Below, piece after piece: positions 2,415 through 62,485 of a stretch of DNA of 64,000 bases. Each line of letters starts with the position of its first letter. Within the stretch, counting starts at the first letter, position 1. The DNA is from a phage: the sequence record PZ171033.1; one strand, 5' to 3'. The notes below the pieces were generated by a model. The model ran no database searches, was not told the DNA's origin, and saw only the letters and a list, made by a program, of their open reading frames with translations. The translations under genes were made by a program, and so were the position numbers.

Positions 2415-3207
2415 CTTCACTGGCAAGAAAATTGACAACGTAGTCAAAGCCGGGAGTTCATCAGGTTATGATGGGCACAGTCTTCGTGCATATGCTTACT
2501 TCGGTGAGCAGATGCCAGACATAGAAGACACGGTAGAATCCATTAACTCCATTCAGCATAAGTACAAATCATTACGTAGTGACTCGAAGGCTCCAACCTT
2601 CTTGCTTACCTATGGTGGTACGTATATGGGCTTAATGAAAAACTGTGGCTTCTCTGAAGAGAAGGCTAAAACTACAGAGAAGCGTTATCACGACCTCTAT
2701 GTAGTTAGTGACAGGTGGGTTCAGGCTAAGCTAGACGAAGCTGCCAAAACTGGTTATGTTACTGCCGCATTCGGTTTGAGAGTGCGTACTCCTTTACTGG
2801 CTCAGGTTTTACGTGGGACATGCAAGACTCCGTATGAAGCAGAAGCAGAAGGCAGAACTGCTGGTAATGCTTTAGGACAAAGCTGGTGTCTACTGAATAA
2901 CCGTGCTGGTTCAGAATTTATGCGTAAAGTCAGAGCCAGTGAGTTCAGGTTAGATATTCGTCCTAGTATTCACATTCATGATGCTCAGTACTTCATGATT
3001 CGTGACAACATGGATACCTTACAGTTTACGAACAAGCACTTGGTTGAAGCCGTTAACTGGCAAGATCATCCTGATATTGCCCATCCAGAAGTTGGTTTGG
3101 GTGGGGAACTATCCTTGTTCTACCCAACGTGGGCTAATGAGATTGAAATTCCAAATCACGCTACCCCAGAAGAAGTTCATCAAATAATTCAAAAGGCATT
3201 CGCATGA
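2377..3207 (+). CDS. DNA polymerase, family A, C-terminal part (motifs B and C)
   Basis: YDGHSLRA (DIH-like), motif B RSDSKAPTFLLTYGG, motif C IHIHDAQYF; ATG 2377 with AGGAG 11 nt upstream, but may instead be a spliced exon beginning near 2466. Confidence 0.8.
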   Translation: MLLYDSLPKSTHDFTGKKIDNVVKAGSSSGYDGHSLRAYAYFGEQMPDIEDTVESINSIQHKYKSLRSDSKAPTFLLTYGGTYMGLMKNCGFSEEKAKTTEKRYHDLYVVSDRWVQAKLDEAAKTGYVTAAFGLRVRTPLLAQVLRGTCKTPYEAEAEGRTAGNALGQSWCLLNNRAGSEFMRKVRASEFRLDIRPSIHIHDAQYFMIRDNMDTLQFTNKHLVEAVNWQDHPDIAHPEVGLGGELSLFYPTWANEIEIPNHATPEEVHQIIQKAFA

Positions 3208-3509
3208 CCAAAAGTACTAAAGAAACTGTAGTCAGAAAATATCATTGGATGGTAGCAGCACAGGTAGTATTCCAACTTCCTAAAGTGGATGATGGTTCCC
3301 TGCTTACCATGAACACAATGCTGCTCACTGATGAACCTTATGTGACCTATAAAGATTTGGCACGTGCCAATCACTCCCTGAAGATTAGTCTGGACCAACG
3401 CTTTGATACCTCGGTTGACCTGAAAGACATCGTTTATCTGTCTCTCAGCAACCTGGGTCTGATGTCTGAACCAGAGTTCCAGGCAAATATGATTCCTAAG
3501 GAGAAATAA
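3204..3509 (+). CDS. hypothetical protein
   Basis: Compact ORF with start overlapping upstream stop, in replication module. Confidence 0.5.
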   Translation: MTKSTKETVVRKYHWMVAAQVVFQLPKVDDGSLLTMNTMLLTDEPYVTYKDLARANHSLKISLDQRFDTSVDLKDIVYLSLSNLGLMSEPEFQANMIPKEK

Positions 3510-3793
3510 TGGCTAAGCTCTCCGGTGGATTGAATAACTGGTATGTAGTACCAGTTAAACACCCTCAACGGAAAGAGCAAGAGCCATATCAAGCAGAATG
3601 TGAGGATATTATCCAAGCACTGGGCATGACCTTCGATGAAGGTTGTGCCTTTAAAGCTTTATGGCGAAATGCTGCTGCCCGTATGGGTAATGGTAAACCT
3701 GGAAACTCTTCGGTGTACGACTCAGAGAAGATTGTGCACTATGCCAATCGCATATTGAAAAAGGCTTATAATGAAGATAACCAACAATCATGA
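3509..3793 (+). CDS. hypothetical protein
   Basis: ORF translationally coupled to neighbours. Confidence 0.5.
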   Translation: MAKLSGGLNNWYVVPVKHPQRKEQEPYQAECEDIIQALGMTFDEGCAFKALWRNAAARMGNGKPGNSSVYDSEKIVHYANRILKKAYNEDNQQS

Positions 3794-4751
3794 TGTCTCA
3801 CTGGCTCTGGCTGTATGGCTATTACATGATGAGTACGATTACGTAGACAATCCTAAGTATCTGTCTGTTACTACATTGCTTAAGCCCATTAAGCAAATCG
3901 TCATGAAGCATCGTGTAGATTTGAGTGACCAGTCAATTGATGTTATGGATTTCGTCTCAACATCAATGGGTACTGGTTTACATGACTCTATCGAGAAAGC
4001 CTGGAAGTTAGGTCATAAGACTGCATTGAAGAAGCTAGGTTATCCTCAGCGTGTAATTGATGCAGTAGTCATTAATCCAACCAAAGCAGACTTTGATACT
4101 AACCCTGACCTTATCCCAATCTACATTGAACAACGTGGAACCAGGGTAGTTAAGGGTTGGACTATCGGTGGTAAGTTCGACATCGTAACAGAAGGTCTAT
4201 TACAGGACTTTAAGTCTACCTCAACCTATTCCTGGGTTGCTGGTTCCCGTGATGATGAACACAAGATGCAAGGCAGCTTGTATCGTTGGATTCACAACGA
4301 CATCATTACTGAGGATGTAATTCGTATTAACTACATCTTCACTGACTTCATGAAGCACATGGCTAATAGCAATCCGAACTATCCTGCTAATCGTATTATG
4401 CATAAGGATATTCCACTGCTATCTGTCGATAAGACTGAACGTTGGGTAGAAGAGAAGATTCACCTCATTGAGAAGTACTGGAATGCACCTGAAGAGGAAA
4501 TTCCTGAGTGTACTGACGAGGAGTTGTGGCGAACAGAGCCACAGTTCAAATACTTCTCTGATGCTTCTAAGGTAGATGTACCTGGAGCCAGAAGTACCAA
4601 AAACTTTGACGATATGGCATCTGCTCGTATCTTCATGGCTGAAAAAGGTGGCAAGGGTGCTATCAAGGTCGTGGAGGGGCAGGTTAAGCGTTGTCTGTAC
4701 TGCCCTGTCGCATCCATTTGCAAACAAAGAGAGAGATATTTTCCATCATGA
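3771..4751 (+). CDS. PD-(D/E)XK nuclease with C-terminal Cys cluster (Cas4/RecB-like exonuclease)
   Basis: GKFDIVTEG...QDFK core motif; C-terminal C...CLYCPVASIC four-Cys cluster. Confidence 0.55.
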   Translation: MKITNNHDVSLALAVWLLHDEYDYVDNPKYLSVTTLLKPIKQIVMKHRVDLSDQSIDVMDFVSTSMGTGLHDSIEKAWKLGHKTALKKLGYPQRVIDAVVINPTKADFDTNPDLIPIYIEQRGTRVVKGWTIGGKFDIVTEGLLQDFKSTSTYSWVAGSRDDEHKMQGSLYRWIHNDIITEDVIRINYIFTDFMKHMANSNPNYPANRIMHKDIPLLSVDKTERWVEEKIHLIEKYWNAPEEEIPECTDEELWRTEPQFKYFSDASKVDVPGARSTKNFDDMASARIFMAEKGGKGAIKVVEGQVKRCLYCPVASICKQRERYFPS

Positions 4752-9561: not shown

Positions 9562-10282
9562 TCTGGTAGGTGGCTCAGAAGCTGCTGCTATTTGTGGTAG
9601 TGTTCGTAATTCTGATGCTATTGCTTATCAGGATTCTGGACGTGTCGGCTCCATACATAGCATTTATCATCACTGTACTTATACTTTGGAAACTCAGTGA
9701 TAAAAACGGTGGTGACAAGCCGCCAGAGTAACAACAACAACCGAACCAGTGGACTTTAATACTCTCCGAAGTCCACAGGTTCAATCTAAACTAAGCGGAA
9801 AAGTTAGCTTTTTCTTGGGTGTAGAACCTGTTGAAGGAAACAAAGAATTTCACATTGAATAGTTAATATCGTAAAGGGTTCTGTTAGAATCCTTTGAGAT
9901 AGGAACTCCTATCATAACTATTCTTAACTTAATCTTTGCCGTATGGCACTGACGCTAGGGGTGGCCCCCCATCCGTCAGGTAGACTATTTTAAGAATGGG
10001 TTATCACAGCAAATGTAAAGCAACATTCGGGTTAATCAATGGCCTCTCCCTATAGGGGCCATTTCTGAATCTTAGGCTATATCCCAAAGGTTAGTATCTT
10101 TGGGATAAGGCTTCAGATCTCTTATCAACTAACGCTCATGTTGAGCATTCTACTCACACAAGCCCCTATATGGGCTGGGTTAAATGTCGGATAGCATAGC
10201 TACCTACAGCATCGAGATGTTAGGTCTTACATGTAATATAGGGTATAAAGGGAGGACTCGTCCCCTCCCTCCTATTATAATG

Positions 10283-10352
10283 GTCGGGGTAGCACGTAGG
10301 CATGTGCGGATGGTCGCTACTTCCCTCGCTGGTTCGAATCCAGCCCCCGACT
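10283..10352 (+). tRNA. tRNA-like gene (possible pseudo-tRNA)
   Basis: 7-bp acceptor GTCGGGG/CCCCGAC, U8A9, D-arm GCAC-GTAGGCAT-GTGC, T-arm GCTGG-TTCGAAT-CCAGC; anticodon arm imperfect by eye. Confidence 0.4.
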
Positions 10353-10903
10353 TACTGACATCCTATCAATGAGTACATTAGGCTAACGTGCGGAGGTTTA
10401 CACTGTAGCCGGTGTAGGTGGAGAAGACGGCAGGGTAGCTACCTGTGCTTAGTGTACTCTTTGATAGTTTTCGTAAGCGATTATGCGGTTTTTTAGAAAC
10501 GAACCAATAACATAAATGCAAACGATGATGTTGTTCTGATGGCGGCGTAATAGCCTGTAAGTCAGCAAGGTCTTCCGACTCCTTGTAAGCAAATTCGGCG
10601 CAGTGGCCCGCTGTGATTAATAATGGGCACACAACAGGTAAGAGCATTTAGGCTACTGAGAAATCATCCGAGGCAATCAGACCTATCTTCTGTTAAGTGC
10701 TCTTTCCGTTGTGGTGAATGCGCAGGCTGATGCGCAGTGGGACGTGGCTGACTCACGAGGATGGCTCAAGCGAATAAGCAAGCTCGACGCCGCCGAATAA
10801 GCGCCTTATGCCGGAGATCAGCACCGGCCACCACAACAAGTCCAGACGATATCTGAGTGACTATAAAAACAGATGGAGCCAGGTGGAATCCCTGGCAACT
10901 AAT

Positions 10904-11732: not shown

Positions 11733-11808
11733 TACCCGGTAGGCTTAGTGGTAAAGCCCCACTAGTAAACCAACTAGGACGCAGGTTCGAATCCTGTCCG
11801 GGTAGCCA
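11733..11808 (+). tRNA. tRNA-like gene with encoded CCA
   Basis: Acceptor TACCCGG/CCGGGTA, U8A9, D-arm GGCT-TAGTGGTAA-AGCC, T-arm GCAGG-TTCGAAT-CCTGT, G then CCA; anticodon arm atypical (6-nt loop by eye). Confidence 0.5.
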
Positions 11809-11813
11809 TTTAT

Positions 11814-11898
11814 GCCCACTTAGCTCAGTGGTAGAGCGCAGGAAAGCTTCGAGAGAACAAGGTGTCTGTGGTCACTGGTTCAAATCCAGTAGTGGGTA
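11814..11898 (+). tRNA. tRNA-like gene, long-arm (class II-like) length
   Basis: Canonical D-arm GCTCAGTGGTAGAGC, T-arm ACTGG-TTCAAAT-CCAGT, acceptor GCCCACT/AGTGGGT; 36-nt anticodon/variable region does not fold canonically by eye. Confidence 0.45.
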
Positions 11899-53035: not shown

Positions 53036-53854
53036 ATGTACTCATCTATTGAACATCAGAAGCAGCTTGAAGTCCTTTTTAACAAAAACCAATTACTGCC
53101 TCGCATGAGGAAGGAATTCGAGGACTCCAAAGAAATTGACTTTAAGGCATTCGCTGCCTATTTAGAAATTGATTATAAGCTGCTCATTGATGCAATGGTG
53201 CAGATTGCCCTACATAAACGTGCTGACATCCAGACTATGATTGGCTCTCTCATGAGTCACTCAGATGATGCTCAGTACATCGCTGACTGTCTGTATAAGA
53301 TGGCAGAGAATGACTGCTTCAACTATGACCCTACCATCGACAAGTTCGGTGTTATCTATGAGATTAGTGAAGATGTTCAGATGGAACTGGAAGCATTCCA
53401 GTATCCATTACCAATCGTCAGTAAACCTAAGCCTGTCCTGACTAACCGGGACACTGGTTACTATGAGTCTAAAGGCTCAATCATCCTCAAGAAGAACCAT
53501 CATGAGATGGACGTCTGCCTTGACCACATTAACCGCATGAACAACCAACGTCTCTGTATTAACTGGGACGTTGCTAACTATGTAAAAGACTCTCGTCCTA
53601 ACATGGATAAACCCAAAGAGGGTGAAACCCGTCAGGATTATGAGAAACGTGTTAAAGCCTTTGAGAAGTACAGTCGTACTGCTAAGGAAGTAATGGAGTT
53701 AGTAACCAAAGAGGGCAATAACTTCTCGCTAGCGCATAAGTATGACAAGAGGGGCAGAACCTATGCCTGTGGATACCACATTAACTATGCGGGGACTTCA
53801 TATAACAAGGCAGTGATTGAATTTGCAGATAAAGAACTAGTAAACGAGGATTAG
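53036..53854 (+). CDS. phage RNA polymerase II, small subunit (N4 gp15-like; N-terminal half of a T7-type RNAP)
   Basis: 272 aa; DxxGR-type motif YDKRGRTYACGY; TAGGAG RBS. Confidence 0.75.
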   Translation: MYSSIEHQKQLEVLFNKNQLLPRMRKEFEDSKEIDFKAFAAYLEIDYKLLIDAMVQIALHKRADIQTMIGSLMSHSDDAQYIADCLYKMAENDCFNYDPTIDKFGVIYEISEDVQMELEAFQYPLPIVSKPKPVLTNRDTGYYESKGSIILKKNHHEMDVCLDHINRMNNQRLCINWDVANYVKDSRPNMDKPKEGETRQDYEKRVKAFEKYSRTAKEVMELVTKEGNNFSLAHKYDKRGRTYACGYHINYAGTSYNKAVIEFADKELVNED

Positions 53855-53855
53855 T

Positions 53856-54437
53856 ATGAAGACATGTTCAGTATGTAAGAAGAACTTGCCTCTGGACATG
53901 TTCAATAAACAGTCCACTGGCAAACAGGGTGTTAGGGCAGACTGTAAAGACTGCCTTAAACGCTTTATCCGTTCAAAACACGGAGTCATTAATCAGATGT
54001 ACTCCGGTTGTATCAGTAGAACCAAGAAGAAGGGATTTACTTCCGTATCCTTCACTAGGGAGGAGCTAGAGAAATGGGTATATTCATGCAAAGAATTTCA
54101 CACATTGTATGACAAGTGGGTATTGGAAGATTATCCAACTGCCTTGAAACCTAGCTTAGACAGACTGGATGATTACAAAGGTTATTCCCTGGATAACATT
54201 CGTATTGTTACAGCCAATACCAACGTAAAGAGGTACTACTCTGATGCAATCAACGGCATCAATACTAAATCAGCTAAGCCCGTTGAGCAGTACTCACTAG
54301 ATGGTGAATACATTAGGACATTCCATTCACTTAGTGCTGCTGCACGAAGTGTTAATGGTATACCTTCTAATATTAATCAAGTAATTAATGGTACGTATGC
54401 GCAAGCATATGGCTATAAGTGGAAACTAGGAGCCTAA
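53856..54437 (+). CDS. homing-endonuclease-like protein (zinc finger + HNH_3-like domain + NUMOD1-type DNA-binding tail)
   Basis: CxxC...CxxC N-terminus; SLDRLDDYKGYSLDNIRIVTANTN; C-terminal ...INGTYAQAYGYKWK. Confidence 0.6.
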   Translation: MKTCSVCKKNLPLDMFNKQSTGKQGVRADCKDCLKRFIRSKHGVINQMYSGCISRTKKKGFTSVSFTREELEKWVYSCKEFHTLYDKWVLEDYPTALKPSLDRLDDYKGYSLDNIRIVTANTNVKRYYSDAINGINTKSAKPVEQYSLDGEYIRTFHSLSAAARSVNGIPSNINQVINGTYAQAYGYKWKLGA

Positions 54438-54438
54438 G

Positions 54439-55656
54439 ATGCAGATTTTCACAGCTAAAGAATATTTAAAAATTGATATTGCCAATTCTTACGGGCTGGA
54501 TAAGAAGACATGGGATGAACGTATTAGCTGGTTCGATGAGAACGAAGCTAACCTGCTTAATCTGGTAGATGAAGCAGAAGAATCCGCACTGTTCTATGCA
54601 GGTGTAAACGCATGGAAAGATATGAAAGCCGGTAAGCCTATCGGTTATGCCGTAGCTCTGGATGCTACATCATCAGGCTTACAGTTACTGGCTTGCCTGA
54701 CTGGTGACCGTTCTGCTGCTGAACTGTGTAACGTAGTTAACTACATGGGCGAGAATGGTAAGCCATTACGTCGTGATGCTTATACAGTTATCTATCACAA
54801 GATGCTGGACATCCTTGGTGAAGCATCACGTATTAAACGTAGTGACACTAAGCAAGCAGTTATGACTGCATTCTACGGTTCAGAAGCCAAACCTAAAGAA
54901 GTATTCGGTGAGGGTATCCGTCTCAAGACTTTTGAGAATGTAATGGAAACGGTTGCTAGTGGTCCTTGGGCATTGAACAAGTTCTTACTGCAATGTGGTA
55001 ACCCGGATGCTAACCGTTACGTATGGGTACTGCCTGACAACTTCCATGCTGTCATTAAGGTCATGGTTCCAGAGGTACAGACTGTTAACTTCTTAGGAAA
55101 ACCATTCGACATCACTCGTATGGTTCAGGGTACTGAAGAGAAGACTCGTATGCTCTCTGCTAATATCACTCACTCTATTGATGGGATGGTGGTACGTGAG
55201 ATGCTGCGTCGTTGTAACTTCAACATGAACCAGGTGAGCTATGTTAAGTCACTTTGTGAAGGAACCTGTGATTACATGGTAGGTACTAGTGAGAATTACG
55301 ACATGGTTAGCCAACTGTGGCATAGCTATGAGAAATCAGGTTTCCTGTCTACCCGCATCTTTGATTATCTGGATTCCGACTCAGTTAAACTGGTTGATAC
55401 AGATGTAGTGCTGGCTATGCTGAACACTCTGCCTAAGAAATCATTCCCTGTAATGACCGTACATGACTGCTTCCGTTGCCATCCTAACTATGGCAATGAC
55501 CTGCGTCGTCAGTACAATCAGATTCTGTCTGACATTGCTAAGAGTGACCTACTGGGCTTCATTCTGTCTCAGGTACTGGGGCAAGAGTTCTCTGCTGGTA
55601 AGCTGGATGACAGCCTCTGGCAGGACATTCTCGAAACAGACTATGCATTAAGTTAA
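54439..55656 (+). CDS. phage RNA polymerase II, large subunit (N4 gp16-like; catalytic half of a T7-type RNAP)
   Basis: 405 aa; motif A ALDATSSGLQLLA, motif B KQAVMTAFYGS, motif C VMTVHDCF. Confidence 0.8.
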   Translation: MQIFTAKEYLKIDIANSYGLDKKTWDERISWFDENEANLLNLVDEAEESALFYAGVNAWKDMKAGKPIGYAVALDATSSGLQLLACLTGDRSAAELCNVVNYMGENGKPLRRDAYTVIYHKMLDILGEASRIKRSDTKQAVMTAFYGSEAKPKEVFGEGIRLKTFENVMETVASGPWALNKFLLQCGNPDANRYVWVLPDNFHAVIKVMVPEVQTVNFLGKPFDITRMVQGTEEKTRMLSANITHSIDGMVVREMLRRCNFNMNQVSYVKSLCEGTCDYMVGTSENYDMVSQLWHSYEKSGFLSTRIFDYLDSDSVKLVDTDVVLAMLNTLPKKSFPVMTVHDCFRCHPNYGNDLRRQYNQILSDIAKSDLLGFILSQVLGQEFSAGKLDDSLWQDILETDYALS

Positions 55657-55713: not shown

Positions 55714-55896
55714 ATGCTAATCCTTTTTGAAGTAATCTTTCAGCTAATACTGATAGTTTTATCTGTACTAGTTCTGACTACGATAGTCCGTGCCCACAAA
55801 TCTAAGTTTGCTTATTACTACTACGGAGCATACTCACTAGGCTGCTTTGTAATAGCAGGATGGATAGCTTTTGCTATCTACTGTGTAAACAACTAA
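55714..55896 (+). CDS. small membrane protein
   Basis: Two TM-like segments; GGAGG RBS; terminators on both sides. Confidence 0.45.
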   Translation: MLILFEVIFQLILIVLSVLVLTTIVRAHKSKFAYYYYGAYSLGCFVIAGWIAFAIYCVNN

Positions 55897-55924
55897 CCCT
55901 CTTAACGGAGGGTTTATTTTTTTA
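55895..55924 (+). terminator. rho-independent terminator
   Basis: AACCCTC-TTAACG-GAGGGTT then TATTTTTTTAT. Confidence 0.65.
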
Positions 55925-55970
55925 TCTGTCATGTATACTAACTCTGCTATTTACTTATGAGGAAATTGAT

Positions 55971-56804
55971 ATGCCAACTTTAAAAGTAGGTTTTAACAAA
56001 ACCACTAATGTTGCAACTGTACTGGATGCCAGTGGCTCTATCCCAGGTGGTTCCGTAGAAGTAGGAACCTTTGTACATCCAGATGCCACTTATCCAGATA
56101 GCTTAGTTATTTTTCATGGTGTTCGTGACCTGCTGTATAAACGTTCTGCTAAAGACCCAAGTAAAGCAGGCTTCTGGCCTAACAACATCGTGGATATGCA
56201 GTCTATCTCTATTGATATGAAAGCTACTCCACGACTGACTATTGCTACCAAACTGTCTCGTGTAGTCTCTGCTATCGAAGGTGAAGACATTAACTGGCAT
56301 GTTGATGTAGCAGGTGGTAAAGCACCATTTACTTATAAATGGCAATTCAAAGCTAATACTGCTGGTGCAGCATTCGCTGATATTAGCTCCAGTACTAACC
56401 CATCTGCTGCTACTGCAACATTGACCCTTAATAATGTAACAGCTGCTTCTGCTGGCACTTATAAGGTGATTGTTACTGATGCTAATGGAACCACTGTAGA
56501 AGATACGTCTTTGCTGGCTGTAGGCTACTACGAAGCAAGTTCACTGGTAGCTACTCCTGCTTCACTGGCTCTGTCTGTTGCTGCTGATACTACTGATGGC
56601 AAGAGCGTAACAATTGCTGCTATGCCTGTTGGTTCTTCTGCTGGTGCTTTATCTATCAAGACTGCTCCAGATTCTGCTCGTGCTACGGCTACCATTGCTG
56701 GTAATGTACTTACAGTTAAGCCAGTAGCTGCTGGTAATGCTACTTCTGTAGTAGTTACCAACGGTACGGTCGATGTAACCATCGCCATTACTGTTGCAGA
56801 ATAA
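55971..56804 (+). CDS. Ig-like domain protein, probable capsid decoration protein (N4 gp17-like)
   Basis: Ig-like/Big_2-like segments (TLTLNNVTAASAGTYKVIVTDANG; NATSVVVTNGTVDVTIAITV); directly after RNAPII genes as in N4; tandem terminators downstream. Confidence 0.55.
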   Translation: MPTLKVGFNKTTNVATVLDASGSIPGGSVEVGTFVHPDATYPDSLVIFHGVRDLLYKRSAKDPSKAGFWPNNIVDMQSISIDMKATPRLTIATKLSRVVSAIEGEDINWHVDVAGGKAPFTYKWQFKANTAGAAFADISSSTNPSAATATLTLNNVTAASAGTYKVIVTDANGTTVEDTSLLAVGYYEASSLVATPASLALSVAADTTDGKSVTIAAMPVGSSAGALSIKTAPDSARATATIAGNVLTVKPVAAGNATSVVVTNGTVDVTIAITVAE

Positions 56805-57098: not shown

Positions 57099-57304
57099 AA
57101 GTAATAAATCGTTCTGAGAACAATGAGGTAACTTTCGGTGATGTACAACCTGCTAATGGTTTTATTTATAACCAGACAGTGTGCTTAAAGATTCACTTAC
57201 CTGATGGTAAACCTGCTGCTGTTGCTGTAGAGACGGGAAAATCATTCTGTCTATCTGCAAGTACATTCGTAACACCAATAAACCTGGAAGGATATTACCT
57301 TTGA
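57095..57304 (+). CDS. hypothetical protein
   Basis: Coupled ORF. Confidence 0.4.
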   Translation: MKVINRSENNEVTFGDVQPANGFIYNQTVCLKIHLPDGKPAAVAVETGKSFCLSASTFVTPINLEGYYL

Positions 57305-57486
57305 AATTAACCCAGTCCCAAGCAATCTTCCTTCGTATGGTTCAAGGTGGTTCTGCCACCAGCAACCGTAATAACAAAACCGCACAGTCTCTTAAGAAAC
57401 TGGGCTTAGTTCAGTTCAATACTGGTCTTGGGTGGTCATTAACCCCTATCGGTGTACTTCAACTCAATGAAATGAAAGGTAACTAA
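57301..57486 (+). CDS. hypothetical protein
   Basis: Coupled ORF. Confidence 0.4.
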   Translation: MKLTQSQAIFLRMVQGGSATSNRNNKTAQSLKKLGLVQFNTGLGWSLTPIGVLQLNEMKGN

Positions 57487-57816
57487 ATGAAAACTTTACT
57501 TAAAGGTATTGCAGTAGCTGCACTGATAGCTTTGGTTCCAAATGCACAGGCAATTGAACCTGAACCAATTCTGGAAGGTGCTCAGGCTTACCTGGATGAC
57601 ACCCGTGATGCGTTCGGGCAAGGATTCTTCATGGGCAGTATGATCTCTTATATCGAGAGTATAAATAATTGCGTTCCCGAAGGTGTTAAGTATTCAGTCA
57701 TTCTGCCTAAGATTGCCAAAGTAGTTATTTATGATTCTGCAATCCTCAAGATGAAGAATACATCTCAAATTGTTGTGTACTCAGTACACAAGGCATATCC
57801 CTGCACTAAATCTTAA
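57487..57816 (+). CDS. secreted/periplasmic protein
   Basis: Signal peptide MKTLLKGIAVAALIALVPNAQA. Confidence 0.45.
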   Translation: MKTLLKGIAVAALIALVPNAQAIEPEPILEGAQAYLDDTRDAFGQGFFMGSMISYIESINNCVPEGVKYSVILPKIAKVVIYDSAILKMKNTSQIVVYSVHKAYPCTKS

Positions 57817-57850
57817 TCAGCAATCCCATTAGCTTTAGGAGAGTAAGTAA

Positions 57851-58164
57851 ATGGCAAGCATCGACTCCTTGACTGTATGTAATTCACGTCAAGCTCGTAA
57901 CTTTATTATCCGTGCCCTGAAAGCAGGTAACGTACCGTTCCTGACTTCATCACCTGGCATGGGTAAATCTGCAATCATTCGTTCTATTGCAGAAGAATTT
58001 GGTATGAAGTTAATTGACCACCGTCTATCTACTTCTGCCCCGGAAGACCTGTCTGGCTTACCTTTCCGTAATGGTGACCGTGCAGAGTTTATTCCATTCG
58101 CTGACTTATTCCCCATTGAGGGAGACGAAGTACCAGAAGGCTATAATGGCTGGCTCTTATTCCT
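57851..58164 (+). CDS. MoxR-type AAA+ ATPase, exon 1 (ends inside Walker B)
   Basis: Walker A SSPGMGKSA; ORF stops at 58171 right after GWLLFLN; proposed 5' splice site after T at 58164. Confidence 0.6.
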
Positions 58165-59046
58165 TAACTAACGGGGCTTCATGAGAGCAATCTCATGTCG
58201 AAAGTTACCTAAACAGGGAACCTCTTCTAAACTGGTTGGCTCAAGTGTATACTTGAGTTTTAATCAATTGGAGACAATCCTGTGCTAAATAATGAAATTT
58301 GGAAAGATGTGCCCGGCTTACCGTATGAAGTTTCCAACTTTGGCGTAGTACGCCGAAAGGAAGGAAAGTATAAATACAAAAACAGGACACATATAAAACC
58401 GTATCTTAATAACAAAGGATACTACTGCGTGAACCTGTACATGAATAGTAAAGTGTACAAATACCAAGTTCACCGTCTGGTAGGATTAGCCTTTGTACCA
58501 AACCCTAATAACTATCCTGTTATTAATCATATAGATGGAAACCCTCTTAATAACCACGAGAGTAACCTGGAATGGTGTACCCAGTCTCATAACATGAAAC
58601 ATGCTTGGGATACTGGACTGCAAACAAACAGGCACGCTAATGCTAGTAATAAAAATCGTGGAGGCTCCTCCAAATATGTAGGCGTATCCTGGAGTGAGCA
58701 AAGACAAAGATGGTGTGCCCATATAAGGGTTAACAAGAAATCTATTGGTTTGGGACGTTACAAAACAGAGGAAGAAGCTGCTAAAGCTTACGACTCCTAC
58801 GTAACTAATAACAATCTTACACAGATTGGGTACAGTACCAATTTCATTTAAACGCCAAACGACTATCGAAAACACACAGAAATGTGGAAGTGAGTAGAGT
58901 AGGGTGCAAGCCAATGGCACTCGAAACGGTAACAGCCCTAGCAATAGGGCTTTGATATAGTCTCCTCTGCATGGTGACATGCAGCAGTCAGTATTCACTG
59001 AGTGTACTGACGGCATTAGTAGTTGCGAACTAATGTGAAGATAATG
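58165..59046 (+). mobile_element. probable group I intron (882 nt) carrying an HNH-AP2 homing endonuclease ORF
   Basis: 5' exon ends in U, insertion ends in G; joining 58164 to 59047 restores Walker B LLFLDEFN in frame; 117 + 195 nt non-coding flanks around the endonuclease ORF. Confidence 0.55.
58282..58851 (+). CDS. HNH-AP2 homing endonuclease (intron-encoded)
   Basis: HNH motif NHIDGNPLNNHESNLEWCTQSHN; AP2 domain YVGVSWSEQRQRWCAHIRVNKKSIGLGRYKTEEEAAKAYD. Confidence 0.8.
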   Translation: MLNNEIWKDVPGLPYEVSNFGVVRRKEGKYKYKNRTHIKPYLNNKGYYCVNLYMNSKVYKYQVHRLVGLAFVPNPNNYPVINHIDGNPLNNHESNLEWCTQSHNMKHAWDTGLQTNRHANASNKNRGGSSKYVGVSWSEQRQRWCAHIRVNKKSIGLGRYKTEEEAAKAYDSYVTNNNLTQIGYSTNFI

Positions 59047-59785
59047 CGATGAGTTCAACTCAGCTAAGAAAGAAGTAGTAGCTGCTGCATACAAACTGAT
59101 TCTCGACCGTATGACTGGACAGAAAAAACTTCACCCTAATGTGATGATTATCTGTGCCGGTAACAAAGCTACTGACCGTGCCATCGTTAACCCACTGGGT
59201 ACTGCAATGCAGTCTCGTGTTGTCCACTTTGAAATGGAACTTAACTTCGACATCTTTGTTGAAGACGTTATGATTCCGTACAAGTGGGATGAACGTCTGG
59301 TTGCATTCTTACATGCTAACCCAGGCTATCTGCATGACTTTGACCCAGCCCATAAGAACAAAACGTTCTGTTGCCCTCGTACTTGGGACTTTGTTAACAA
59401 AGACCTCAAGAACCTCCCGGAAGGTGCTCTGCCTGACGAGGATTCCCTATACTACAGTGGTTTTGTTACACCAGGTAAGGCCGTAGAGTTTGTTCAGTTC
59501 ACTCAGGTATACAATCGTATGATTACGATTGAGAAGGTAGTCAAAGACCCCATGGGCTGTGCACTGCCGGAAGATACCAACCTATGCTGGGCTACCGTTA
59601 ACCATCTGGCTAACAAAACTACTGAAGAGAACTTCGCTGATGTTCTCCAGTACATTGAACGCTTTAAAACGTTCACCCATAAGATTCTGTACTTCCGTAC
59701 AGTGGGCAAAGCATTACCAGAAATTCAGGCTACCCCTGAATGGCGTAAGGCTGCTGCCAATATCTCTCGTTACATTCACGGATAA
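59047..59785 (+). CDS. MoxR-type AAA+ ATPase, exon 2
   Basis: In-frame DEFNSA... with no start codon upstream of track ATG 59111; sensor-1-like VMIICAGN. Confidence 0.6.
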
Positions 59786-59792
59786 TCACATC

Positions 59793-60269
59793 ATGAACTG
59801 GAATGACTTGTTCACATACAGCAATGGTGCTCTTTACTGGAAAGTATCTAGAGGCCGTGCACTAGCTGGGGCTGTTGCCGGGAGTGTGGACAATAGTGGA
59901 TACGTTAGAGTCAAATGCTTCAAAAAGATGTACTTGGTTCACCGTATAATCTATGAAATGGAAATCGGCCCAATCCCTGATGGCTACCAGGTAGACCATA
60001 TTGACCATAACAGGTTAAATAACTACCCAAGTAACTTCCGTTTAGTCACCAATTTAGATAACTGCCGTAACCAAAAGAAAAGGATAACCAATTCTTCTGG
60101 TATTACAGGAGTCTATTGGCACTCCAGAGATGAAATATGGGCTGCTTCCATAAATGATAATGGTAAGCAAATTTATTTAGGAAAATTCCCTAGTAAAGAA
60201 GAAGCTGCTAAAGCCAGGAAAGAGGCTGAAAAGCTTATTGGTTACCATAAAAATCATGGAGCACCTTAA
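59793..60269 (+). CDS. HNH-AP2 homing endonuclease (free-standing)
   Basis: HNH motif YQVDHIDHNRLNNYPSNFRLVTNLDN; AP2 ITGVYWHSRDEIWAASINDNGKQIYLGKFPSKEEAAKA; ATG 59793 chosen inside track ORF 59559. Confidence 0.75.
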   Translation: MNWNDLFTYSNGALYWKVSRGRALAGAVAGSVDNSGYVRVKCFKKMYLVHRIIYEMEIGPIPDGYQVDHIDHNRLNNYPSNFRLVTNLDNCRNQKKRITNSSGITGVYWHSRDEIWAASINDNGKQIYLGKFPSKEEAAKARKEAEKLIGYHKNHGAP

Positions 60270-61444
60270 TGAATAACATACCTACACATACCCTTACTGA
60301 TGAACAGTTAATGAGGGAGTACGACAGGATCCAAGCTAACGCCTTTCTAGGCAAGTCTGCTGCCTTTTTTGGTTCATTGCTGTGTAGTCTTAAGTTCTCA
60401 TGGAAACGCGAGGACTGTCCCACTGCATGTACAGATGGGATAGAACTCCATTTCAATCCAGACTTCTTTATCTGGATGTGTCCTGATGCAAGAGAAACAG
60501 TACTAATGCACGAACTCTGGCATGTGGCATATCTGCATGGAATCCGTTGTGGAAGCCGTGACCCAGAAATCTGGAACCAGGCATGTGACCACTTCATTAA
60601 CCTTCAGTTAGAGGAAGATGGTTACAAGTTCACTGGTATCGACAAAGGCATTTGCAAAGACCCTCAATATAAAGGATGGGTCGAAGAAGACATCTACGAT
60701 GACCTGATGAAGAACCCTCAGAAAAGGCAGAAGCCGTCAGGGGGTGCTGGAGCAGGTCTTGCTGGCGACATGAAAGCTCCCTCTTCGGGGCAGTCCCAGG
60801 GTGCTGTTGTCAACAACGTAGTACGTGCAATGCAAAGTCAGAAGATGGCTGGTGGAACAATGCCCGGTAAGGGTGCTGGTCGTATGGAAGAGGTTATTAC
60901 CCAATTCCTTAAGCCAGTGGTTCCATGGCAGGAAGTCCTCATGAACTTCTTTACCGACATTGATGACACTCACTATACGTGGGCCAGACCTAACCGTCGT
61001 TACACTGACATCTATCTACCTTCACTGGAAGATGATGAAGGGCGTCTACGACACTTAGCTTACTTTGAGGATGTATCAGGTTCTATTAGTAGTGCTGACT
61101 CTCTGCGTTTTAACTCAGAGGTTGCCTACGTTAAGAGCCAGTTCAACCCTAAAAAGATGTCCTTAATTACCTTCGACGATATTATCCAAGAAGAGATGGA
61201 CATCACTGAAGAAGATACTTTTGAAGAGATTAGGATTACAGGTCGTGGTGGTACAAACCTTGAACCAGTACGAGAATGGATTATTAAGAATAAGCCAACC
61301 GCTGCAATCATATTCTCCGATATGTATGTTCGCCCAATGGAAGAATTGCCATTTGATATACCTATCATTTGGTGTGTTCTGAATAATCCTAATGCTACCG
61401 TACCTTTTGGGGAGGTAGTTCATATCCCTAAAGGAATGAAATAA
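60269..61444 (+). CDS. VWA-domain protein with HExxH metallopeptidase-like motif (MoxR partner)
   Basis: LMHELWHVAYLH; C-terminal VWA-like region; adjacent to AAA+ ATPase. Confidence 0.55.
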   Translation: MNNIPTHTLTDEQLMREYDRIQANAFLGKSAAFFGSLLCSLKFSWKREDCPTACTDGIELHFNPDFFIWMCPDARETVLMHELWHVAYLHGIRCGSRDPEIWNQACDHFINLQLEEDGYKFTGIDKGICKDPQYKGWVEEDIYDDLMKNPQKRQKPSGGAGAGLAGDMKAPSSGQSQGAVVNNVVRAMQSQKMAGGTMPGKGAGRMEEVITQFLKPVVPWQEVLMNFFTDIDDTHYTWARPNRRYTDIYLPSLEDDEGRLRHLAYFEDVSGSISSADSLRFNSEVAYVKSQFNPKKMSLITFDDIIQEEMDITEEDTFEEIRITGRGGTNLEPVREWIIKNKPTAAIIFSDMYVRPMEELPFDIPIIWCVLNNPNATVPFGEVVHIPKGMK

Positions 61445-61950
61445 TGGTTGTTAATGGTAATTCTCTATATCGTTCATCTCAGTTGCTGGATGTCCCTGAC
61501 CGTAAGATATCCGAACATGGTGTAAGCTATGGATTAGGTGAAGCTGGTTATGATATTCGTATCAAACAAGATATTACCTTCTATCGCTTATTTGGGTTGA
61601 TTCCAATGGTGAAGGTCGTTGATGGAAAGCAAGTATCACGACATTTTGGTAAGTTCACATTGGCTTCAGCAATTGAGAAGTTCAACATGTCCCCATCCTG
61701 TGTAGCTATCGTTCACGATAAGTCTACCTGGGCAAGACGTGCATTATCAGTGTTCAATACCGTAATAGAACCAGGTTGGAAAGGGTATTTGACTCTTGAA
61801 CTGGTCTATCATGGTCGCAAGAAATTGCATATCCCGGCTGGTGCTGGGATAGCCCAAGTATTATTTCATCTGGTTCAAGAACCTGCTAATTACAATGGCA
61901 AGTATATGAACCAGGAAAACAAACCAGTAGCTGCAAGAAGCAGTAAATAA
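61444..61950 (+). CDS. dCTP deaminase-like protein (dUTPase fold)
   Basis: Motif VIEPGWKGYLTLELVYHG...GAGIAQVLFH. Confidence 0.55.
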   Translation: MVVNGNSLYRSSQLLDVPDRKISEHGVSYGLGEAGYDIRIKQDITFYRLFGLIPMVKVVDGKQVSRHFGKFTLASAIEKFNMSPSCVAIVHDKSTWARRALSVFNTVIEPGWKGYLTLELVYHGRKKLHIPAGAGIAQVLFHLVQEPANYNGKYMNQENKPVAARSSK

Positions 61951-61959
61951 GGAAGCAAC

Positions 61960-62169
61960 ATGTCAGTATTTCAAGTAACTCATGCAACCTCAGATGTACG
62001 TGTAACCATTAATGCTGCAAATGTAGTAGGAGTGGAACAAATTCCACTGTCTGATTGTGCACGTATCACATTCGTAAATGATAGTACTATGGACACCAAA
62101 GAAACCTATCGTTCGGTACGTAATTACCTGAAGAAAGCTCTTGCTCCTGCAAGCAAAGATGCTGAGTAA
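61960..62169 (+). CDS. hypothetical protein
   Basis: 69-aa ORF followed by 9-bp-stem hairpin. Confidence 0.4.
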   Translation: MSVFQVTHATSDVRVTINAANVVGVEQIPLSDCARITFVNDSTMDTKETYRSVRNYLKKALAPASKDAE

Positions 62170-62242
62170 GTAACTGCCTAAATAGCCCAGCATAGTTGGG
62201 CTATTTGTGAAGAAACTAACTCAACCACTCAAAGGAATTATC

Positions 62243-62485
62243 ATGGAGTCTTTAGCCGTATTTTTCGCTGCATTCTTTATCCTGGTTGTATACCTTATCC
62301 CAACTATCATTGCTTTTGCACGAGGCCATGCCTCTAAGTGGGGTATTGGTGTACTCAATATCGTACTCGGATGGTCACTGGTATTCTGGGTAATTGCACT
62401 GATTTGGTCACTGTCCAACAAAGGTCAGAACCAGGTTACAAATGTAACTGTTGTTCAAACCAATGGTGGCAGTAAAGCAGAGTAA
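62243..62485 (+). CDS. superinfection-immunity-like membrane protein
   Basis: PTIIAFARGH...NIVLGWSLVFWVIALIWS resembles the Imm family signature; AAGGA RBS; terminator downstream. Confidence 0.5.
   Translation: MESLAVFFAAFFILVVYLIPTIIAFARGHASKWGIGVLNIVLGWSLVFWVIALIWSLSNKGQNQVTNVTVVQTNGGSKAE

Follow-up and report, generated by a model that had tools for sequence, protein, structure and literature searches.

An N4-like coliphage with a group I intron in gp24 and a free-standing homing endonuclease gene at the gp24-gp25 junction

Introduction

The closest described counterparts of the insert reported here are the group I introns of the T4 td gene, which carries I-TevI, and of the SPO1 DNA polymerase gene, which carries I-HmuI. 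The insert lies within positions 57,851 to 61,444 of a 64,000-nucleotide (nt) stretch of phage DNA (record PZ171033.1; this whole stretch is called the window), where the gene of an AAA+ ATPase, homologous to gp24 of phage N4, is followed by that of a VWA-domain protein, homologous to gp25. As in the td and SPO1 introns, the insertion falls in a codon of a conserved catalytic motif, the open reading frame (ORF) is looped out of helix P6, the start and ribosome-binding site of the endonuclease lie in ribozyme helices, and the extra helices P7.1/P7.2 are present. In contrast to both, the host gene encodes an AAA+ ATPase and not a nucleotide-metabolism enzyme or a polymerase. The intron enzyme is of the HNH type, whereas that of td is GIY-YIG, and although homologous to I-HmuI of SPO1 it carries a C-terminal AP2 DNA-binding domain.

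A second endonuclease gene, free-standing, lies between gp24 and gp25 and recalls the seg and mob genes of T4-like phages, which are also intergenic endonuclease genes placed between conserved genes, patchily distributed in close relatives and accompanied by flanking co-conversion. Unlike those genes, it encodes an HNH-AP2 and not a GIY-YIG protein, and it has captured the translation-initiation region of the downstream gene.

The gp24-gp25 pair itself is comparable to the MoxR-class pairs CbbQ/CbbO, NorQ/NorD, RavA/ViaA and BchI/BchD and to midasin. It shares with them the AAA+ fold, with CbbQ, NorQ, midasin and dynein as the closest, and an adjoining partner that has a VWA fold with a complete metal-ion-dependent adhesion site (MIDAS). 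In contrast to these pairs, gp24 has a helical C-terminal extension of about 180 residues and matches no MoxR family model, gp25 bears an N-terminal HExxH domain (DUF2201_N), and the module is phage-encoded. CbbQ, NorQ and midasin all function with a VWA/MIDAS domain.

Both genes, gp24 as "unknown" and gp25 as "vWFA domain", are among the 14 core genes of N4-like phages (PMC4193335), and they are counted among the middle transcripts (PMC4193335; also PMC2784036). Recurrent interruption of gp24 is already partly on record: HNH genes were reported in 2013 to split the gp24 homologue of the Vibrio phages JA1 and VCO139 (PMC3670811), and an annotation note of phage U1G reads "Phage intron".

We read 57851-61444 as the core module formed by gp24 and gp25 in an N4-like coliphage, into which two selfish mobile elements have moved; neither of them should inactivate it. 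This reading is given a probability of roughly 85%.

Results

Two insertions in the gp24-gp25 module

The records closest to the window are those of Gamaleyavirus phages of Escherichia and Shigella, with 90-93% nucleotide identity, and by sequence the source phage is placed in this genus, as a G7C/N4-like coliphage of the family Schitoviridae. The annotation notes of these relatives call the ATPase "N4 gp24-like" and the VWA protein "N4 gp25-like" (vWFA), and gp26, a dCTP deaminase, comes next. The ORF list of the window gives ORFs of 106 amino acids (aa; 57851-58171, with Walker A), 189 aa (58282-58851) and 224 aa (59111-59785), a further one ending at 60269, and one of 391 aa (60269-61444). 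The features assigned to this region are the following.

57851-58164, plus strand: gp24 exon 1, codons 1-104 and the first two bases of Leu105, with Walker A (GMGKS, residues 36-40) and a Pfam AAA match
58165-59046, plus strand: 882-nt group I intron that splits the codons of Walker B (between LFL and DE), with its terminal G at 59046
58282-58851, plus strand: intron-encoded homing endonuclease, 189 aa, whose ORF is looped out of P6a; domains NUMOD4, HNH_3 and AP2
59047-59785, plus strand: gp24 exon 2, the last base of Leu105, Walker B D106/E107, sensor-1 N144 and the C-terminal helical domain
59793-60269, plus strand: free-standing homing endonuclease gene, 158 aa, with HNH_3 (E = 9e-19) and AP2 domains
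60269-61444, plus strand: gp25-like protein, 391 aa, with N-terminal DUF2201_N and a C-terminal VWA domain with MIDAS
61444-61950: dCTP deaminase-like ORF (Pfam), in the same order as gp24-gp25-gp26 in relatives

In phage IME11, the ATPase is an intact protein of 350 aa and the VWA gene starts 7 nt after it. When IME11 was aligned with the window, matches covered 57301-58165, again 59048-59798, and again the region from 60269. Therefore, two insertions are present in the window with respect to IME11, one of 882 nt within the ATPase gene and one of about 470 nt between the genes. In the phage collection that was searched, no single record held the query 57400-62000 with all insertions (the best coverage was 82%), and no record covered 80% of the 24-kb stretch 40000-64000.

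The original prediction, made from the letters of the sequence, had proposed an AAA+ ATPase followed by a VWA partner, hit by an intron-like insertion and by a free-standing endonuclease gene. The pair corresponds to the core genes gp24 and gp25 of N4 (PMC4193335); of 80 metagenomic viral loci from IMG/VR, 76 have a homologue of gp25 downstream of that of gp24. Both insertions are likewise borne out: the first is a group I intron by its partial Rfam match, fold, covariation and P1 guide pairing, and the second is a gene with HNH_3 and AP2 domains and a patchy distribution among relatives.

The insert in gp24 is a group I intron

When joined, the two exons encode a 350-aa protein that is colinear with the IME11 ATPase and 95% identical to it. 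Because the unspliced exon 1 frame meets a TAA at 58169-58171, five nucleotides into the intron, and because the first in-frame ATG of the exon 2 ORF (59111) leaves out the invariant D106/E107, a functional ATPase would require the insert to be spliced. An intein was excluded by the in-frame stop codon after the junction.

The splice junction reads CUC UUA UUC CU, then the intron, then C GAU GAG, which gives L-L-F-L/D-E (here and below, a stroke within a sequence marks the insertion point). Two intron registers are possible and an identical protein results from either. The register 58165-59046 was chosen because it puts a U just before the 5' splice site and a G at the end of the intron, a rule kept in all eight related introns, and because the three intron-bearing alleles read CT/C at Leu105 whereas the intron-less ones read CTT. 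The helices were assigned as follows.

Internal guide sequence GGGG: 58173-58176
P2: 58180-58186 with 58191-58197
P3: 58204-58209 with 58928-58933
P4: 58213-58217 with 58279-58283
P6a: 58291-58299 with 58840-58848
P7: 58861-58866 with 58957-58962
P8: 58934-58940 with 58945-58951
P9: 58967-58973 with 58978-58984

P1 forms between GGGG (intron positions 9-12) and UCCU at the end of the exon, and U-1 faces a G. The eight related introns, which occupy four sites, each have a guide that matches their own exon and likewise puts a G across from U-1, and all of them end in G; the guide and exon sequences are UAGGG and CCUUA in PW8, UGCGA and UCGUA in the second intron of NAN33P5, and UAGGCA and UGCUUA in Pollock and VCO139. 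After the ORF was replaced by a tetraloop, the minimum-free-energy fold contained P2, P3, P4, P5 with its extension, P6a, P8, P9, P9.1 and P9.2 (z = -4.4), and P7 was missing from it because it forms a pseudoknot.

Covariation was assayed across nine helices, including P7, in six ORF-less intron cores from four insertion sites, with slid-partner and shuffle controls. Standard pairs filled 90.8% of the cells, compared with 34-43% when the partners were slid; both sides had changed in 37 of 60 pairs, compared with 19 ± 3 in the shuffles, and the covariation score was 0.57 versus 0.22. Compensatory changes were found in P2, P3, P4, P6a, P7.2, P8 and P9, whereas P7 is almost invariant and hence uninformative. 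Many unrelated phages have sequences 72-80% identical to the core at 58849-58989, in terminase and in other genes. We also take the core (AACGACUAU ... GAUAUAGUCU ... CUGCAUGGUGACAUGCAG ... AUAAUG/C) to be nearly identical to that of the T4 td intron, and P3-P4-P6 and P7-P9 to be strikingly td-like (the subgroup with P7.1/P7.2). By sequence and structure, the 882-nt insert is confirmed as a group I intron, and it resembles the td type. A pattern search for conserved P7 motifs found no second td-like intron within the window, and a literature search on Gamaleyavirus with intron returned nothing relevant.

Once transcribed, the intron would fold with its guide GGGG paired to the exon end UCCU, and splicing at U58164 and G59046 would restore the ATPase reading frame. 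The opposite could be argued, namely that the gene is permanently split, as a pseudogene or as two separate polypeptides, by a free-standing endonuclease cassette that does not splice. Two separate "ATPase" coding sequences (CDSs) are indeed annotated in the GenBank/RefSeq records of U1G, PW8 and pSb-1, genes split by free-standing endonuclease genes are generally known in T4-like phages, and the Rfam match of the window insert is below threshold. However, a second polypeptide started at ATG 59111 would omit the invariant Walker B D106/E107, and no ribosome-binding site is obvious for this ATG. In the insert, all the group I helices are present, with covariation, the guides are exon-specific and every intron ends in G, a 9-bp P6a helix closes off the ORF, a related ORF-less intron in this gene scores above the Rfam threshold, and the depositors of pYD6-A annotated a joined CDS. 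A permanent split is therefore highly improbable, and a spliced group I intron is retained as the explanation of the insert.

The intron-encoded endonuclease

The ORF inside the intron is supported by homing-endonuclease models of Pfam, PHROGs and PADLOC, and its product resembles I-HmuI (PDB 1U3E; E = 6e-12). The ORF starts with a GUG (58282) located in the 3' strand of P4, the counterpart of which in the PW8 intron ORF is an AUG. The sequence GGAG (58270-58273), 8 nt upstream of the GUG, can serve as ribosome-binding site and is, by inspection, the 3' strand of P5; the 9-bp P6a (58291-58299/58840-58848) pairs the first codons of the ORF with the last. In NAN33P5 and Pollock, the equivalent of the P6a helix covers the Shine-Dalgarno sequence. 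As the start and ribosome-binding signals and the P6a codons lie in ribozyme helices, endonuclease translation and ribozyme folding would exclude each other, as is the case for other phage introns. An antisense ORF of 202 aa within the intron (58486-59094, minus strand), in which no domain was found, was taken as spurious.

Translated from this start codon buried in the ribozyme core, the HNH endonuclease would cut or nick intron-less gp24 alleles in mixed infections, and repair would copy the intron in.

A free-standing endonuclease gene at the gp24-gp25 junction

The true start of the free-standing gene is the ATG at 59793, seven nucleotides past the ATPase stop (59785). The spacer and first six coding bases (tcacatc ATGAAC) match the start of gp25 in IME11 (tcacact ATGAAC), and because of this match the insertion point of the gene is placed directly behind the original gp25 initiation codon, and the gene uses the translation signals of gp25. 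With its last codons (cat GGA Gca cct TAA), the gene supplies a GGAG that precedes the new gp25 ATG by seven nucleotides, and its stop overlaps the gp25 start as TAATG. The insertion would thus keep gp25 expressed by means of the supplied ribosome-binding site and the overlapping stop and start.

Phage Mimir124 has an identical copy of the gene (100%), G7C and the UE phages have copies with 74-75% identity at this location, only a 103-aa remnant is left in Bp4, PD38 and Uz-1, and IME11, U1G, PW8, ECBP1 and St11Ph5 do not have the gene. Pairwise alignment with Mimir124 revealed one further feature.

59704-60337: mismatch-free tract of 633 nt with respect to Mimir124, comprising the free-standing gene, 89 nt upstream and 68 nt downstream

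Most 100-nt bins around this tract contain roughly 5-8 mismatches each. The tract is read as the probable mark of a recent endonuclease-mediated transfer with short co-conversion tracts. According to this interpretation, the enzyme would cut nearby sequence in genomes that do not have the gene, and recombinational repair would spread it.

In the 80 IMG/VR loci, the gp24-gp25 spacer mostly holds unrelated small ORFs, including a recurrent protein of roughly 60 aa that is also present in N4. When the spacer ORFs were compared by eye, with no domain search, that of G7C alone recognisably resembled the HNH-AP2 endonuclease of the window, and for this reason the junction endonuclease appears to be specific to the genus and not to the family. 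The recurrent ORF (about 60 aa; INK.G..D.PY[IV]AGF.GK.IGLYA.S.AEAKQ.A.EHFKPKK) lies between gp24 and gp25 in N4 (segment 4550-4730) and in many N4-like metagenomic phages; Gamaleyavirus phages do not have it.

The distribution of the junction gene also bears on whether it has been domesticated, as an AP2-based regulator or an infection nuclease, instead of being a selfish homing element. Its translational integration with gp25 and the persistence of diverged full-length homologues (74-75%) at the same place in G7C and the UE phages would fit such a role, and PMC5746245 cites Kala et al. 2014 for some phage HNH proteins with housekeeping roles. Yet the gene is absent from most close relatives, is truncated in three phages, and in the window forms part of a tract identical to Mimir124 set within flanks that are about 6% diverged; this pattern is the cycle of invasion, decay and loss expected of a homing endonuclease gene. 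Domestication is thus considered very unlikely, and 59793-60269 is treated below as a homing endonuclease gene.

Because Mimir124 does not have the intron and U1G does not have the free-standing gene, the window phage is, at the sequence level, a mosaic that carries both elements. None of the earlier intron-bearing gp24 records (U1G, NAN33P5, PW8, pSb-1, pYD6-A, JA1, VCO139 and Pollock) pairs the Walker B-site intron of the window with a junction endonuclease.

Intron positions in gp24 homologues

The insertion sites of split gp24 homologues were mapped onto the protein numbering of the window.

Site 37/38: inside Walker A (SPGI/GKS), in Pollock; without ORF and unannotated
Site 67/68: EDL/SGLP, in PW8 and pSb-1
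Site 105/106: Walker B, in the window; of the phage collection, only U1G and NAN33P5 share this intron, and IME11 and Mimir124 do not have it
Site 119/120: AAA/YKL, in Pollock and VCO139
Site 215/216: CP/RTW, in pYD6-A, annotated as a joined CDS
Site 216/217: CPR/TW, the second intron of NAN33P5

Introns thus occupy at least six positions in gp24, and all the mapped ones fall at residues with little or no variation among 36 homologues. A single gene may carry up to two. The gp24 gene of Escherichia phage Pollock contains two introns; the unannotated one spans about 2114-2499 of the segment, and the CDS of a 29-aa "hypothetical protein" is really exon 1. The second intron of the Gamaleyavirus phage NAN33P5 (segment 2480-3343), unique to this phage in the phage collection, has its own NUMOD4-HNH endonuclease, whose ribosome-binding site GGGAG is paired in P6a with sequence just past the stop codon; a related core is present in gp24 of pYD6-A. 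In VCO139, the 5' half of Rfam Intron_gpI matches with 52 bits at segment 1555-1799, upstream of VCO139_0032, an HNH gene, and of the ATPase fragment annotated first, which suggests another intron and an unannotated first exon.

The introns of pYD6-A (a Pseudoalteromonas phage), JA1/VCO139 and U1G are like that of the window in host gene, intron family and NUMOD4/HNH endonuclease family (33-40% identity). They differ in position from the 105/106 site of the window in pYD6-A (215/216) and in VCO139 (119/120), as do those of Pollock (119/120 and 37/38) and of PW8 and pSb-1 (67/68). Because the endonucleases at different gp24 sites are only 33-40% identical, the sites are best explained, on sequence comparison, as old and independent colonisations by one family of elements. 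At sites 67/68 and 105/106, both exons end in CCU/U and the P7-P7.2 region is about 90% identical. A recent transposition of the intron between these two sites was considered and set aside, as the endonucleases are 39% identical and most helices differ by compensatory changes; any such transposition would be old.

These data support the prediction that the module is a recurrent homing target, which extends to the gp24-gp25 junction, where relatives carry full-length, diverged and truncated endonuclease genes.

The gp24 ATPase

The residues of Walker A, Walker B and sensor-1 are invariant in the 36 gp24 homologues, from which an AlphaFold model was obtained with a predicted local distance difference test (pLDDT) score of 87.5. 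In sequence and profile searches of the PDB the matches were weak, and the best sequence match was midasin (E about 2e-4); in fold, gp24 is closest to dynein, CbbQ, midasin and NorQ. By inspection, the model places strands 70-74/77-81 and 131-133/137-144 where the helix-2 insert and the pre-sensor-1 hairpin are expected. A helical extension of roughly 180 residues forms the C-terminus. Among Pfam models, only the generic AAA passes (28.7 bits; cut-off 21.2). A search with PADLOC found no defence-system match for the ATPase or the VWA protein, the sole match being a 14-bit one to DolB with no significant stretch.

The label "MoxR-type" in the original prediction holds in part: it rests on fold similarity and on the VWA partnership and not on family models, since AAA_5 and bpMoxR both remain below threshold. 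Another AAA+ clade, clamp-loader-like or HslU/Clp-like, with a VWA neighbour that is no functional partner, would account for the generic AAA model being the only one to pass, for the weak match to a PHROGs clamp-loader family (E = 4e-6) and for the unrelated small genes found between gp24 and gp25 in many relatives. Against it stand midasin as the best PDB sequence match, the beta-hairpins of the model at 70-81 and 131-144, which on inspection fit the helix-2 insert and the pre-sensor-1 hairpin, and the gene order, which is conserved in 76 of the 80 loci and which, like that of CbbQ/CbbO and NorQ/NorD, includes a VWA protein with a MIDAS. We consider a different clade unlikely; "MoxR-like" is, by a small margin, the best description of gp24 available and is moderately supported, while membership by family model is not seen.

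In Bp4, the gp24 gene looks frameshifted into multiple ORFs (two or three), which could be a sequencing error or a real pseudogene.

The gp25 protein and the possible function of the module

The gp25 protein matches DUF2201_N, annotated as a putative metallopeptidase (188.7 bits, E = 2e-55), and the VWA-like domain of DUF2201 (119.3 bits, E = 1e-34). The HExxH motif of the VWA protein, noted in the original prediction, is HELWH at residues 81-85, followed by H90; H81, E82 and H85 are invariant in 37 homologues, and H90 is nearly so. The C-terminal domain has the VWA fold and a complete MIDAS (DVSGS at 268-272, T329 and D351), of which D268, S270, S272, T329 and D351 are invariant in the same homologues. 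Sequence and profile searches of the PDB with gp25 gave nothing significant, and for the N-terminal domain no structural match to a solved peptidase was obtained. From its sequence, DUF2201_N of gp25 is a putative zinc peptidase (zincin) domain.

This family is labelled "HNH endonuclease" in PHROG phrog_1314, a name that has spread to RefSeq and to pharokka-style annotations. The affected genes include the following.

NC_070872, segment 3501-4675: gp25 labelled "HNH endonuclease"
NC_027381, segment 4291-5391: gp25 labelled "HNH endonuclease"
PQ310662, segment 2984-4159: gp25 labelled "HNH endonuclease"

The label is almost certainly wrong, because the Pfam matches, conserved residues and fold are those of a VWA protein with a putative zincin domain and no HNH domain. 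The gp25 gene of U1G (segment 3501-4675) and that of pSb-1 (2880-4050) are seemingly frameshifted into two or three ORFs, by sequencing error or as real pseudogenes.

By analogy with CbbQ/CbbO and NorQ/NorD, gp24 could be a hexameric (ring) AAA+ remodelling ATPase of the dynein/midasin/MoxR clade that acts through gp25. The MIDAS-bearing VWA domain of gp25 would bind a target protein, its HExxH domain may cleave or process the bound target, and the action would fall in the middle phase of infection. We hold this proposal tentatively, at somewhat less than even odds. No functional study of gp24 or gp25 was found in the literature, and searches on DUF2201 or on Schitoviridae with MoxR gave nothing relevant.

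Other features of the window

The module is flanked by two further genes of the plus strand, and a third free-standing endonuclease-like gene and a cluster of transfer RNA (tRNA)-like genes were detected elsewhere in the window.

62207-62485, plus strand: superinfection-immunity (Imm-like) membrane protein
55860-56804, plus strand: Ig-domain protein, by position the gene called "Hoc-like head decoration" in relatives
53856-54437, plus strand: free-standing endonuclease-like gene, 193 aa, with a NUMOD1 domain and a Cys-rich N-terminus
11733-11805 and 11814-11898, plus strand: Rfam tRNAs, the latter with a long variable region
10282-10353, plus strand: tRNA-Ala (CGC), by ARAGORN
11733-11808, plus strand: odd tRNA with a two-base anticodon, by ARAGORN
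10447-10599: weak matches resembling transfer-messenger RNA

The gene at 53856-54437 abuts an ORF of 272 aa upstream (53036-53854), for which there was no Pfam match, and ORF 54439-55656 downstream, which matches Pfam RNA_pol. The two ORFs probably encode both subunits of the N4-type RNA polymerase II (gp15/gp16).

Discussion

Several results weigh against the reading of the locus as a functional module of a MoxR-like pair colonised by two mobile elements. A local scan with Rfam Intron_gpI matched the 3' half only of the window intron, with 22.2 bits (E = 0.009) against a gathering score of 50; the whole-window scan by E-value did not report the intron, and the scan at gathering threshold gave only tRNAs. 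For the homing history, the intron is about 96% identical to those of U1G and NAN33P5 and its flanks about 93%, with no clear co-conversion tract, and as the intron identity is only modestly above that of the flanks, its recent homing is not demonstrated. On the protein side, gp24 scores below the MoxR-specific Pfam cut-offs (AAA_5, 18.1 versus 22; bpMoxR, 13.6 versus 27), and an NCBIfam search gave no match for gp24 or gp25.

The low Rfam score probably arises from the 570-nt ORF in P6, which splits the match to the model. The local match does align the conserved GAUAUAGUC J8/7-P7 element, related introns that bear ORFs score 23-36 bits, and the ORF-less intron of Pollock gp24 reaches 101.4 bits versus the gathering score of 50.

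The original prediction also described the module as disrupted. It is interrupted by two insertions, but not inactivated, since the intron should splice out and the second gene is intergenic.

Taken as a whole, conserved genes that harbour a mobile group I intron and a free-standing homing endonuclease gene are an ordinary pattern for phages, and nothing here overturns current understanding. What is mildly unusual is the density of independent intron sites in a single gene of 1 kb, both Walker motifs included. One could go further and regard gp24 as an unusually dense group I intron hotspot whose endonucleases may be weapons against co-infecting relatives more than neutral parasites: the endonuclease would cut the core gene of a rival and spread by repair. 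We find this competition scenario doubtful. In a weaker variant, splicing or the sequestered endonuclease start may time the expression of the middle-phase core ATPase.

For annotation, the split "ATPase" CDSs in records of Gamaleyavirus and other Schitoviridae should be joined across group I introns, and at least one gp24 intron, the ORF-less Walker A intron of Pollock, is wholly unannotated. For the biology of these phages, the codons of gp24 in which the selfish elements settle are its least variable ones (Walker A, Walker B, AAA/YK and CPR/TW), and this is independent evidence that gp24 is under strong constraint. Homing and phage competition could conveniently be studied in the natural polymorphism of coliphages that are 90-95% identical, some of which have the intron and others not, and in which the endonuclease gene may be present, missing or truncated.

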